Below, in pieces: positions 6,153 to 28,300 of a stretch of DNA of 64,000 nucleotides. Numbering within the stretch: position 1 is the first letter of the stretch; the number at the start of each line of letters is the position of its first letter. Both the position numbers and the translations under genes were made by a program. Below the pieces are notes generated by a model. The model was not told the origin of the DNA. It did no database searches and saw only the letters and a list, made by a program, of their open reading frames with translations. Source of the DNA: Escherichia coli (GTDB lineage: Bacteria; Pseudomonadota; Gammaproteobacteria; Enterobacterales; Enterobacteriaceae); the NCBI RefSeq assembly GCF_003018255.1, contig NZ_CP027440.1. One strand, 5' to 3'.

Positions 6153-6240
6153 GCCGGATGCGACGCTTGCCGCGTCTTATCCGACCTGGGGGTAATGTGC
6201 TGAACGTATGCCAGATAAGGCGTTTACGCCTTATCTGGCA
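6153..6240. repeat. REP/BIME palindromic repeats
   Basis: gccggatgcgacgcttgccgcgtcttatccgacctgg and gccagataaggcgtttacgccttatctggca. Confidence 0.8.
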
Positions 6241-25040: not shown

Positions 25041-25937
25041 TTATTTTCCGCTAAAAAGTTTGGGAATTTCCCGCAGACACCAGGATTTCGCCTCCCCCAT
25101 ACTGTCACGACGCCAGGCCATAATAATATCGATCTCGCTGGTCGATTCCGGGCTGACGACACGCAACCGCCCTTCCGCGATGTCTTTTTCGACCATCGGA
25201 TACGGCATCGTCGCCACGCCAAGCCCCGCCAGTAACGCCTGACGTTTATCTTCAATCGTGCTCACCGTTAAACGCGGCTGTTTGTCCAGTAGCTGTACGG
25301 TCAATACCGGGCGCTCACGAGCGGTATCCGCCACCGCAATTCCACGATATTTCACGCGCGTCACTTCAGATAACGGTTCCGGCTCCTGATGAATCGGGTG
25401 ATCAGGCGCGGCAACGTAGACGTTCATTAACGTATAGAGCTTGCGCGAGTTGATCTCCGACGAGGAGCGAAAATGCATATCCGGCGCGATAACAATATCC
25501 GCCCGCCCCTGCTCCAGCCGTTCCCATGCCCCCGCCAGCACTTCGGTGATGATTGCCAGTTGGGTATTCGCTTTTGCCGCCAGTTTGTCAATTAACGGGA
25601 AAAAGGCAGGTGTCGGTACCAGCGCTTCGGTCACAATGGTGAGATGCGTTTCCCAACCGCGCGCGAGAGCTTCCGCATCGGTAGTCAGTTTATCTGCGGC
25701 TTCCAGCAAAACGCGTCCTCGCTCCAGCAACATCCTCCCGACATTGGTGAATTTGGTGCGATGGCCCGAGCGGTCAAACAGCACCACATCCAGCTCTTCT
25801 TCCAGTTTTTGCATGGTGTAGCTAAGTGCGGAAGGCACGCGTCCCAGCTCATCCGCCGCCGCCGCAAAACTGCCCCGGCGATCGATCGCATCCATAACCC
25901 GTAGTGCTTCCAGCGTTAATGCCCTTTCTTTGGCCAT
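25041..25937 (-). CDS. yhaJ: LysR-family transcriptional regulator
   Basis: 298-aa ORF with N-terminal HTH. Confidence 0.9.
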   Translation of the reverse strand: MAKERALTLEALRVMDAIDRRGSFAAAADELGRVPSALSYTMQKLEEELDVVLFDRSGHRTKFTNVGRMLLERGRVLLEAADKLTTDAEALARGWETHLTIVTEALVPTPAFFPLIDKLAAKANTQLAIITEVLAGAWERLEQGRADIVIAPDMHFRSSSEINSRKLYTLMNVYVAAPDHPIHQEPEPLSEVTRVKYRGIAVADTARERPVLTVQLLDKQPRLTVSTIEDKRQALLAGLGVATMPYPMVEKDIAEGRLRVVSPESTSEIDIIMAWRRDSMGEAKSWCLREIPKLFSGK

Positions 25938-26041: not shown

Positions 26042-26743
26042 ATGATTACTACCCGAACTGCCAGGCAGTGTGGACAAGCAGACTACGGATGGTTGCAGGC
26101 CCGGTATACTTTTTCCTTTGGACACTACTTCGACCCGAAATTGTTAGGCTATGCCTCCCTGCGCGTGCTTAACCAGGAAGTGCTGGCCCCAGGTGCCGCC
26201 TTTCAGCCGCGAACCTATCCCAAAGTCGATATTTTAAATGTGATTCTGGATGGAGAAGCTGAGTATCGCGACAGTGAAGGCAATCATGTTCAGGCCAGCG
26301 CCGGAGAGACATTGCTGCTCTCTACCCAGCCGGGTATCAGCTATAGCGAACACAATCTCAGCAAAGACAAACCGTTAACGCGAATGCAGCTTTGGCTGGA
26401 TGCCTGCCCGCAGCGAGAGAATCCGCTGATTCAAAAACTGGCGCTTAATATGGGCAAGCAGCAATTAATCGCCTCGCCAGAGGGCACAGTGGGTAGCCTG
26501 CAACTGCGCCAGCAAGTGTGGCTGCACCATATCGTGCTCGACAAAGGCGAAAGTGCGAATTTCCAGTTGCATGGACCACGCGCGTATTTGCAATCGATTC
26601 ACGGGCAATTTCATGCGCTTACGCATCATGAAGAGAAAGCGGCGCTGACCTGCGGTGATGGGGCGTTTATTCGTGACGAGGCTAACATTACGCTGGTTGC
26701 CGATTCCCCACTGCGCGCTTTGCTGATAGATTTGCCTGTCTAG
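26042..26743 (+). CDS. yhaK: Pirin-like bicupin protein
   Basis: 233-aa ORF. Confidence 0.85.
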   Translation: MITTRTARQCGQADYGWLQARYTFSFGHYFDPKLLGYASLRVLNQEVLAPGAAFQPRTYPKVDILNVILDGEAEYRDSEGNHVQASAGETLLLSTQPGISYSEHNLSKDKPLTRMQLWLDACPQRENPLIQKLALNMGKQQLIASPEGTVGSLQLRQQVWLHHIVLDKGESANFQLHGPRAYLQSIHGQFHALTHHEEKAALTCGDGAFIRDEANITLVADSPLRALLIDLPV

Positions 26744-26762
26744 TTGTTTTTACAGGGAGATG

Positions 26763-26930
26763 ATGATGAGTAAAAAATCGGCCAAAAAGCGTCAGCCAGT
26801 GAAGCCCGTGGTGGCGAAAGAACCTGCTCGCACCGCCAAAAATTTTGGCTATGAAGAGATGTTGAGCGAGCTGGAAGCCATCGTCGCGGATGCTGAAACG
26901 CGTTTAGCCGAGGATGAAGCTACCGCGTAA
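26763..26930 (+). CDS. yhaL: Small protein YhaL (55 codons)
   Basis: MMSKKSAKKRQPVKP... ORF below the ORF-track size cutoff; frame verified by codon count. Confidence 0.6.
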   Translation: MMSKKSAKKRQPVKPVVAKEPARTAKNFGYEEMLSELEAIVADAETRLAEDEATA

Positions 26931-26936
26931 AGACAG

Positions 26937-26975
26937 GTGCCGGATGCGGCGTAAACGCCTAATCCGGCACGATAC
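26937..26975. repeat. REP palindromic repeat
   Basis: gtgccggatgcggcgtaaacgcctaatccggcac. Confidence 0.75.
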
Positions 26976-26989
26976 CCAAAACCTGGCGT

Positions 26990-28300
26990 TTATCTGGCCT
27001 TGCTCGCCATAATCTCGATAATCTGCCGATCCGTTTGCTGCATCGAATGGCTTGCTAACGCACACAGGTTGGCAATCGACTGCTCAACATCATGCGCCAC
27101 AATCCCTTCATTACCGGTTACGGCGGTATCATCCAGCGCCATTAACACCGCTTTCCACGCAGCCGAAGCACTGGTCGAAACCTTCATCGCGCAGCTGTTC
27201 GATGCACCATCGCAAATCATGCCACTGACATCGCCGATCATACTGCTGATCGCCATCGAGATGGTTTCATAACGCCCATCCACCAGCCATGCCATCCCGG
27301 CAGCGGCCCCCATTGCTGCGGTCGTTGCGGCACACAGCGCAGACAAACGCGGTAACTGGTTATGGATGTAAATCGCGCTCAAATGCGAAAGCATCAGCGC
27401 ACGCGCCAGCCGTTCATCATCCGCTCCGAAGTGTTCTGCTACCACCACCACGGGCATTGTTGCGGTGATCCCCTGGTTACCCGAGCCGGAGTTACTCATT
27501 GCCGGAAGCGTAGCGCCGCCCATACGCGCATCGGATGCCGCGCTGGTACGAATCACAATGGATGAAGAGAGATCTTTCGCCAGCAAACCGCGCGCGCACT
27601 GTTTTTCCAGCGTCGCACCAATATGCAGCCCCCAGTTACCGCTCAAACCTTCCTGCGATAACGCACAATTTAACTTCGCAGAATCGAGGATAAAGCGGAT
27701 CGCCGCAAACGGGACTTCATTGACGAACTTCAGGATCTCAGCCAGCGTCGTCCTGGAAAGCACCGTCAGCGGCGACTCTTGCTCGCCCTCTGTCACACAC
27801 GCCTGCTGGGTAAACACCACACCATTGTGCGTCTCAATATGCACAATGTTGGTATGCCCGCCGACGATGGTGACACACGCCCACTTCTCACCGTTCCAGA
27901 CTTTGGCGCGTGAGAAGAGGATTTCATCGCAAGGTTCCTGGATCTTAACTGAGACTTTCCCCGCTGCCAGCAGTGCTTTGGCATCGGCAATTGCCTGCGC
28001 AGTTGCGTCTTTCAGCACTTCCAGCCCGGCGTTAGCATTTCCACCTAACGCTCCCAGCGCCGCCGCAATTGGCAGCCCCACCATTCCTGTACCAGGAACG
28101 GTGACACCCAGACCGTTCTTCATCAGATTTGGCGAAACCCAGGCTTCTACACGTTCAACCGGACCTTCCAGTTCAGCCGCAGCAACCGCCGCCGCCAGCG
28201 CCAGTGAAATCGGTTCAGTACACCCCAGCGCCGGTTTTACTTCCTCCTGAACGGCGAGGATGTAACGCTGCCATAACGGATTTAAAGTCGAATCAAACAT
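26990..28300 (-). CDS. cyuA: L-cysteine desulfidase (YhaM/CyuA)
   Basis: 436-aa ORF. Confidence 0.9.

Follow-up and report, generated by a model that had tools for sequence, protein, structure and literature searches.

The window analysed here, a single stretch of 64,000 nucleotides from Escherichia coli, carries the small gene yhaL, which follows the pirin-family gene yhaK on the plus strand and faces cyuA across a spacer with one REP element. The features of the locus, in window coordinates, are as follows.

25041-25937, minus strand: yhaJ, LysR-type regulator, divergent from yhaK-yhaL (open reading frame and annotation)
26042-26743, plus strand: yhaK, pirin-family bicupin of 233 aa, first cistron of the presumed yhaK-yhaL unit
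26754-26759, plus strand: AGGGAG, the Shine-Dalgarno sequence of yhaL, spaced 6 nt from the ATG at 26766
26760-26765, plus strand: two further ATGs of the yhaL frame (26760 and 26763), ahead of its annotated start
26766-26930, plus strand: yhaL coding sequence, 54 codons and TAA (RefSeq mapping; K-12 b3107)
26766-26849, plus strand: yhaL codons 1-28, Lys/Arg-rich tail, predicted to be disordered and fast-evolving
26850-26927, plus strand: yhaL codons 29-54, predicted single acidic amphipathic alpha-helix, with the invariant core M32-V40 at 26859-26885
26937-26970, no strand assigned: single REP hairpin in the convergent yhaL-cyuA spacer
26990-28300, minus strand: cyuA (yhaM), convergent neighbour, not a conserved partner of yhaL

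The yhaK gene terminates with TAG at 26741-26743. Behind it an uninterrupted plus-strand frame of 56 aa (26760-26930, N-terminus MMMSKK) opens with a series of in-frame ATG triplets at 26760, 26763 and 26766. A first-pass annotation of this DNA had picked out 26763-26930 (MMSKKSAKKRQPVKP, 55 sense codons and a stop), which is a genuine part of this frame but begins one codon upstream of the annotated start at 26766. The third ATG is the best supported of the three, on the following grounds. The Shine-Dalgarno sequence lies 0, 3 and 6 nt from the three triplets in turn, a spacing that suits the third best. Salmonella, Citrobacter and most other relatives have one start followed by SKK, and comparison of the regions upstream of the orthologues shows that the ATGs corresponding to 26760 and 26763 are missing from them. 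Finally, a published N-terminal peptide, SKKLAKKR, maps to the third ATG. GGAG-like Shine-Dalgarno sites are found 5-9 nt before the start in most of 12 orthologues, and no RNA structure is predicted in the initiation region. Other details of the first description hold up well: its distance of 20 nt from yhaK is about right (19 nt as measured from the stop codon to 26763, and 22 nt to 26766), the REP element that it placed directly after the ORF begins 6 nt past the stop codon, and the absence of the ORF from the list of open reading frames, which it had put down to size, fits a product of 56 aa and a lister default of 60 aa.

The ORF is yhaL (b3107), a gene that is already annotated and belongs to the E. 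coli core genome; nothing is added to the catalogues by finding it here. Its initial identification as yhaL agrees with RefSeq. The yhaL coding sequence of the best-matching record maps to 26766-26930 of the window, 'yhaL: protein YhaL' is annotated in all 37 E. coli records among the matches listed, and yhaL is likewise annotated in each of 25 records sampled down the ranking of matches to a 191-nt query. That query was restricted to the ORF and had matches of at least 95% identity in 5405 of 5426 complete E. coli genomes, which places the gene in the core genome. With a longer query of 451 nt, which takes in the surroundings of the ORF, 5406 of the 5426 gave a match, and the annotated features were yhaL, yhaK and cyuA. 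In K-12 MG1655, b3107 occupies 3255043-3255207. The K-12 protein (UniProt P42625, NP_417578.2) is the product of the same gene, identical at 53 of 54 residues (residue 5 is S in the window strain and L in K-12), the DNA is collinear, and the neighbours yhaJ, yhaK and cyuA and the start context CAGGGAGATGATGATGAGT are those of the window.

Translation of yhaL has been documented in K-12. The TRAINSPOTTER N-terminomics data (Table S1, row 716) include the b3107 peptide SKKLAKKR, residues 2-9, and the start codon is placed at the ATG of NC_000913:3255043-45 with support from Ribo-RET, INRI-seq and REPARATION (PMC13245402). Both checks that had been proposed for the ORF, conservation across genomes and a translation signal, are thus positive, and the published data show YhaL to be a genuine translated protein of 54 residues. 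No yhaL entry was found in the proteomics and Ribo-seq supplements of three other papers, and a literature search on b3107 or yhaKL found nothing relevant. In an EcoCyc-based review of the y-ome (PMC11551758) yhaL is counted among the uncharacterised genes and described as 'followed by repeat sites', and the gene was left off one microarray where no probe could be designed for it (PMC3071312).

Relatives of YhaL are all small proteins. Two very large protein collections, searched with HMMER, yielded 78 and 35 of them, and those labelled by species come from Escherichia, Salmonella, Shigella, Citrobacter, Klebsiella indica and Dryocola. A wider view was obtained with a degenerate DNA pattern for the YhaL core, scanned against one genome per species in 100,044 species. 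There were 77 matches, against about 0.1 expected by chance on our own estimate, and 76 of these are YhaL-like ORFs of roughly 46-69 aa, save three clipped by the edge of the locus. They belong to 17 named enterobacterial genera, including Klebsiella, Raoultella, Kluyvera and Kosakonia; as far as seen, yhaL is restricted to the Enterobacteriaceae.

Two hits were rejected as relatives. A 1003-aa protein (P0083, E 4e-10 over seven stretches) is a low-complexity repeat protein with SKSFGYG units, and the match is spurious. A hit in a Prolixibacteraceae MAG (L022) is an unrelated 163-aa Bacteroidota protein with a YhaL-like core by chance (FEDMLSELEAIV, FEDMLSELEAIVNSG); its motif, at oriented position 281, stands in a context that differs from that of YhaL. 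Some YhaL members also give weak Pfam matches to RecQ-1-like_HTH (E 0.055-0.22), and the MLxELExIV type of core may be a recurrent kind of helix.

The two halves of the gene evolve differently. When the codons of 11 orthologues are aligned, strong purifying selection is seen on the last 28, with a pooled pN/pS of 0.285 (pairwise dN/dS 0.05-0.28), and the N-terminal half has a pooled pN/pS of 0.74, indicating fast evolution. Synonymous sites are saturated, with pS about 0.7. Of the 28 helix codons, 27 vary at the third position and 13-15 at the first and second. This codon-position pattern indicates selection on amino acids in the yhaL frame and not on RNA.

All 11 distinct context loci obtained by exact protein look-up have a LysR gene on the opposite strand, then a gene with Pirin and Pirin_C_2 domains, and yhaL immediately behind it. 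In the genome scan a yhaK homologue lies directly upstream of yhaL at each of 71 testable loci, with its end about 100-140 nt before the YhaL motif (71 of the 71 loci long enough), and yhaJ is divergent in 66 of the 71. By contrast, the gene 3' of yhaL varies and can be cyuA, murA, a SnoaL gene, a WYL regulator, a GATase gene, a DUF465 gene or none that is recognisable. The gap from yhaK to yhaL at the called starts is 19-35 nt in 11 of 12 checked orthologues, and 58 nt in the twelfth (L009, 3971-4138). The called start of that orthologue is a TTG, giving 45 aa; starting instead from the in-frame ATG that lies 30 nt farther upstream, the protein would begin with MKSKKQTRKS…, a family-like N-terminus, and judging by this sequence the TTG is probably wrong. 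In Trabulsiella odontotermitis TbOT1.10 (L033) the yhaK homologue, whose end is at oriented position 6153, contains an in-frame stop (…HAQCM*KEQQ…, tblastn) and yhaL is intact; this yhaK could be a pseudogene or a sequencing error.

The promoter of yhaK is bound and activated by YhaJ, and is induced strongly by hydroquinone and weakly by dinitrotoluene (PMC5031710; PMC7315121). No mention of yhaL was found in the YhaJ studies and supplements consulted. In the window, promoter and terminator signals in the 22-nt gap between yhaK and yhaL do not exceed shuffle expectation. Since the gap provides yhaL with neither a promoter nor a terminator of its own, yhaL is probably the second cistron of a yhaK-yhaL transcript, and would be expressed from the YhaJ-activated promoter, which hydroquinone and dinitrotoluene induce. 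A similar arrangement is said to exist in Synechocystis, where Hihara et al. reportedly described in 2004 a pirA-pirB operon with a divergent LysR regulator, PirR. The LysR gene there would diverge from a pirin gene with a small ORF behind it, as at yhaL.

The predicted protein has two parts. In an AlphaFold model made with a 27-sequence alignment, residues 1-28 are disordered (pLDDT 58-76, no secondary structure), and a single helix, residues 29-53, extends to the C-terminus; its block pLDDT is 90-94 between residues 31 and 50. The helix is strongly acidic, with a net charge of -6 to -9 across 37 species. The alignment built from HMMER hits only has M32, L33, E35, L36, E37, I39, V40 and A43 invariant; in the set gathered by motif A43 and R46, both of which are outside the search pattern, are likewise invariant. 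The nine successive residues M32-V40 are fixed and span all angles of the helical wheel. Invariant residues all round the helix suggest that a partner envelops it and does not contact one face only; the helix may sit inside a groove of that partner or within one of its helical bundles. Searches of Pfam, NCBIfam and the PDB (with a single sequence and with a profile) gave no family that fits YhaL, sub-threshold XseB hits being the sole signal, and PHROGs and PADLOC contained no phage or defence family for it at E up to 1.

These properties lead to a picture in which YhaL, with a flexible, usually basic tail and a very acidic amphipathic helix, would act by binding another protein, which we regard as fairly probable. 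The core MLxELExIV, together with A43 and R46, would pack against the partner much as helix 1 of XseB does. The partner may lie within the quinone and oxidant response of YhaJ and YhaK (YhaK, YhaJ or a target), with YhaL as an accessory or modulatory subunit; confidence in this part falls a little short of even. As an overall explanation, a YhaJ-activated second cistron encoding a small helix-docking partner protein is the one we consider reasonably likely. Roles directed at XseA, driven by the basic tail or acting purely in cis are less likely than this helix-docking accessory model.

YhaK itself is one candidate partner. A fusion of YhaK and YhaL through a (GGGGS)6 linker was modelled with AlphaFold from a shallow alignment of 32 paired orthologues. 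The bicupin core was mostly at pLDDT 80-94, the YhaL helix fell to 58-73 as against 90-94 alone, and the YhaL tail was below 35. The fusion, judged by pLDDT alone and with a shallow 32-pair alignment, gave no sign of docking between the two proteins, which is weak evidence against a complex.

Bacterial small regulatory proteins that bind larger proteins, a class treated in the literature on stress-induced small proteins (for example PMC11429745), resemble YhaL in size, in having one structural element, in expression tied to stress and in restriction to a lineage. YhaL differs in that it is soluble and highly charged, most characterised E. coli examples being membrane helices, and at 54 aa it is just over the usual limit of 50 aa. 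The definition of the family by one acidic helix, the core MLxELExIV and a motif like that of XseB helix 1 makes the search for a partner straightforward. The gene lies inside the yhaOMKJ cluster, on which there has been work concerning the sensing of D-serine, the regulation of virulence and biosensors for dinitrotoluene. It has been part of the K-12 annotation for decades, and the practical value of the present analysis is modest.

The tail, rather than the helix, could be the active part. In that case YhaL would be independent of YhaK and YhaJ: its Lys/Arg tail would bind nucleic acid or the ribosome, the acidic helix would mask or regulate the tail, and the synteny would be historical. The positive charge of the tail (+2 to +8 in 31 of the 37 species) and the conserved MSKK-type N-termini of the homologues are in keeping with this. 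So is a rise in yhaL mRNA in long-term stationary phase (PMC7406224), as well as the appearance of yhaL among the genes under selection in a Salmonella transposon screen (PMC3487940), although transposon calls on a gene of 165 nt are statistically weak. However, the tail is the fast-evolving half of a protein whose helix is invariant, and in Kosakonia-type members it is neutral or acidic, with a net charge of -1 to +1. Since basic charge has been lost there, the basic tail cannot be essential for the core function. The adjacency to yhaK at all 71 loci, despite a reshuffled downstream gene, is also difficult to account for unless the two genes are connected in function or regulation, and an autonomous tail-driven role is unlikely.

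A different partner is suggested by XseB, the small subunit of exonuclease VII. XseB is a two-helix hairpin that grips a helix of XseA in a three-helix bundle (PMC10835039). It and YhaL are both small, start with M-[PS]-K-K, and have a helix of the pattern F/Y-E-x-x-L-S-E-L-E-x-I-V (XseB models PF02609 and TIGR01280). When YhaL was compared by hhalign with a profile of 18 enterobacterial XseB sequences, residues 27-44 aligned with XseB 9-26 (18 columns, 50% identity) with a score of 24.0, P 2.2e-4 and a probability of 45%. None of 200 column-shuffled controls reached 24.0 in either direction (mean 9.4, sd 2.1, maximum 16.9), and reversed controls scored about 10. Because the controls are far lower, the similarity to the helix-1 motif of XseB is regarded as real. 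It is also visible with the NCBIfam XseB models, six of which are matched by YhaL members: the window protein matches at E 0.025, and 13 of 27 family members match, the best at E 2.5e-4. One YhaL homologue is even labelled 'exonuclease VII small subunit' in a JGI record. At the level of sequence, the resemblance is a hint that the YhaL helix packs against a partner helix.

YhaL might be imagined as a single helix that derives from, or mimics, the first helix of XseB and works on exonuclease VII, binding the XseA stalk and competing with XseB or capping the XseB array. If this were so, quinone and electrophile stress would be linked to the repair of DNA-protein crosslinks. In favour of this, XseB needs only a few hydrophobic positions to recognise a partner helix, and accepts six different segments of XseA (PMC10835039). 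Several observations weigh against it. The NCBIfam scores are far below the cut-offs (14.4 bits against 71, and 13.6 against 92). The Pfam model PF02609 (Exonuc_VII_S) does not match YhaL even at E up to 10, BLASTP gave no alignment with E. coli XseB, the relation being visible at the profile level only, and a PDB profile search with YhaL did not retrieve XseB chains. Compared with XseB, YhaL has no turn and no hairpin, carries an 18-residue basic insertion before the helix, and in the predicted structure lacks the second helix that XseB requires to grip XseA. The genomic setting differs as well: yhaL follows yhaK, and the K-12 xseB abuts ispA with a 1-nt overlap, with dxs beyond. In the loci compared yhaL is linked to yhaK and yhaJ and never to xseA or xseB. 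With one helix, no turn, no such linkage and scores this low, YhaL was rejected as a member of the XseB family, and a role on exonuclease VII is improbable.

A further point in favour of an exonuclease VII role is a structural variant of yhaL that arose, as one among 50 genes, in a fluoroquinolone-evolved line (PMC12363166). The yhaL deletion is not named among the strains with altered ofloxacin tolerance in that study, which counts against the same role; a single variant of this kind, with no deletion phenotype reported, was set aside as uninformative (PMC12363166).

The preferred accessory role and the XseB resemblance can be joined in a broader proposal. In the response of YhaJ and YhaK to electrophiles and quinones YhaL would be a third, overlooked component, its XseB-helix-1-like helix docking on YhaJ, YhaK or XseA and either tuning the regulon or coupling it to DNA-protein-crosslink repair, and the gene might have arisen by partial duplication of xseB in an enterobacterial ancestor. 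This is a long shot. If it is true, some published phenotypes of yhaK deletions are partly polar on yhaL; polar effects could in any case be included in such phenotypes, since yhaL is welded to yhaK across the family.

The sequence beyond yhaL contains a hairpin of its own. The REP element at 26937-26970 (GTGCCGGATGCGGCGTAAACGCCTAATCCGGCAC) is a 34-nt GC-rich palindrome (-27.8 kcal/mol, z -2.75). It looks as a REP should, being about 35 nt long, GC-rich, imperfectly palindromic and located 3' of a gene in intergenic DNA, and it aligns to the K-12 REP pair. It also gives sub-threshold matches (E 1.7e-4, under the gathering score) to the Rfam family naRNA4, which we take to be REP-derived. The spacer in which it lies, 26931-26989, is 59 bp with one REP, whereas that of K-12 is 133 bp with two inverted REPs (L002 2709-2841). 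The difference of 74 bp looks like a collapse or an expansion between the two REP arms. Liang, Rudd and Deutscher reportedly found in 2015 that expression is reduced, by way of stalled ribosomes and tmRNA, when a REP lies no more than about 15 nt from the stop codon. If this effect holds here, the output of YhaL in E. coli may be damped at termination.

The position of the hairpin, 6 nt past yhaL, might suggest that the peptide is irrelevant and that translation of yhaL or its RNA acts in cis, stabilising the 3' end of yhaK together with the REP or interfering with transcription of cyuA. The yhaL-cyuA pair has in fact been listed among overlapping convergent transcripts, or 'excludons' (PMC12288877). 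On the minus strand at 26779-26798, within the first yhaL codons, there is also a terminator-like hairpin with a T-run that could end convergent cyuA transcripts; such sites are as frequent as shuffle expectation, and this one may be due to chance. More generally, neither promoter-like nor terminator-like sites near yhaL are commoner than in shuffled sequence. A role in cis is contradicted by the codon-position pattern, with saturated synonymous sites and invariant helix residues, and yhaL is kept where both cyuA and the REP are missing (Dryocola, K. indica, Kosakonia and others), which makes such a role highly improbable.

That yhaL is a chance ORF in an intergenic spacer, as the absence of a Pfam or NCBIfam family covering YhaL and the wrong-frame ORFs of like or greater length nearby might suggest, has a negligible probability and is already refuted by intact frames in 17 named genera with dN/dS far below 1, conserved Shine-Dalgarno sites, the N-terminal peptide and the start-site profiling. 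Wrong-frame ORFs of 126 and 261 aa are present in the same 3.5 kb, and the length of the yhaL frame alone therefore carries little weight; its status as a gene is argued from conservation and translation data.

Within E. coli a few unusual copies of the region occur. One of the approximately 5400 matches is on a plasmid record, and a few genomes have two copies. An 87-aa YhaL variant in the NCBI collection (P0001) has an internal tandem duplication of residues 20-52, and three others (P0040, P0073 and P0076) are 36-45 aa long with an altered C-terminus. These four variants are rare alleles or assembly errors.
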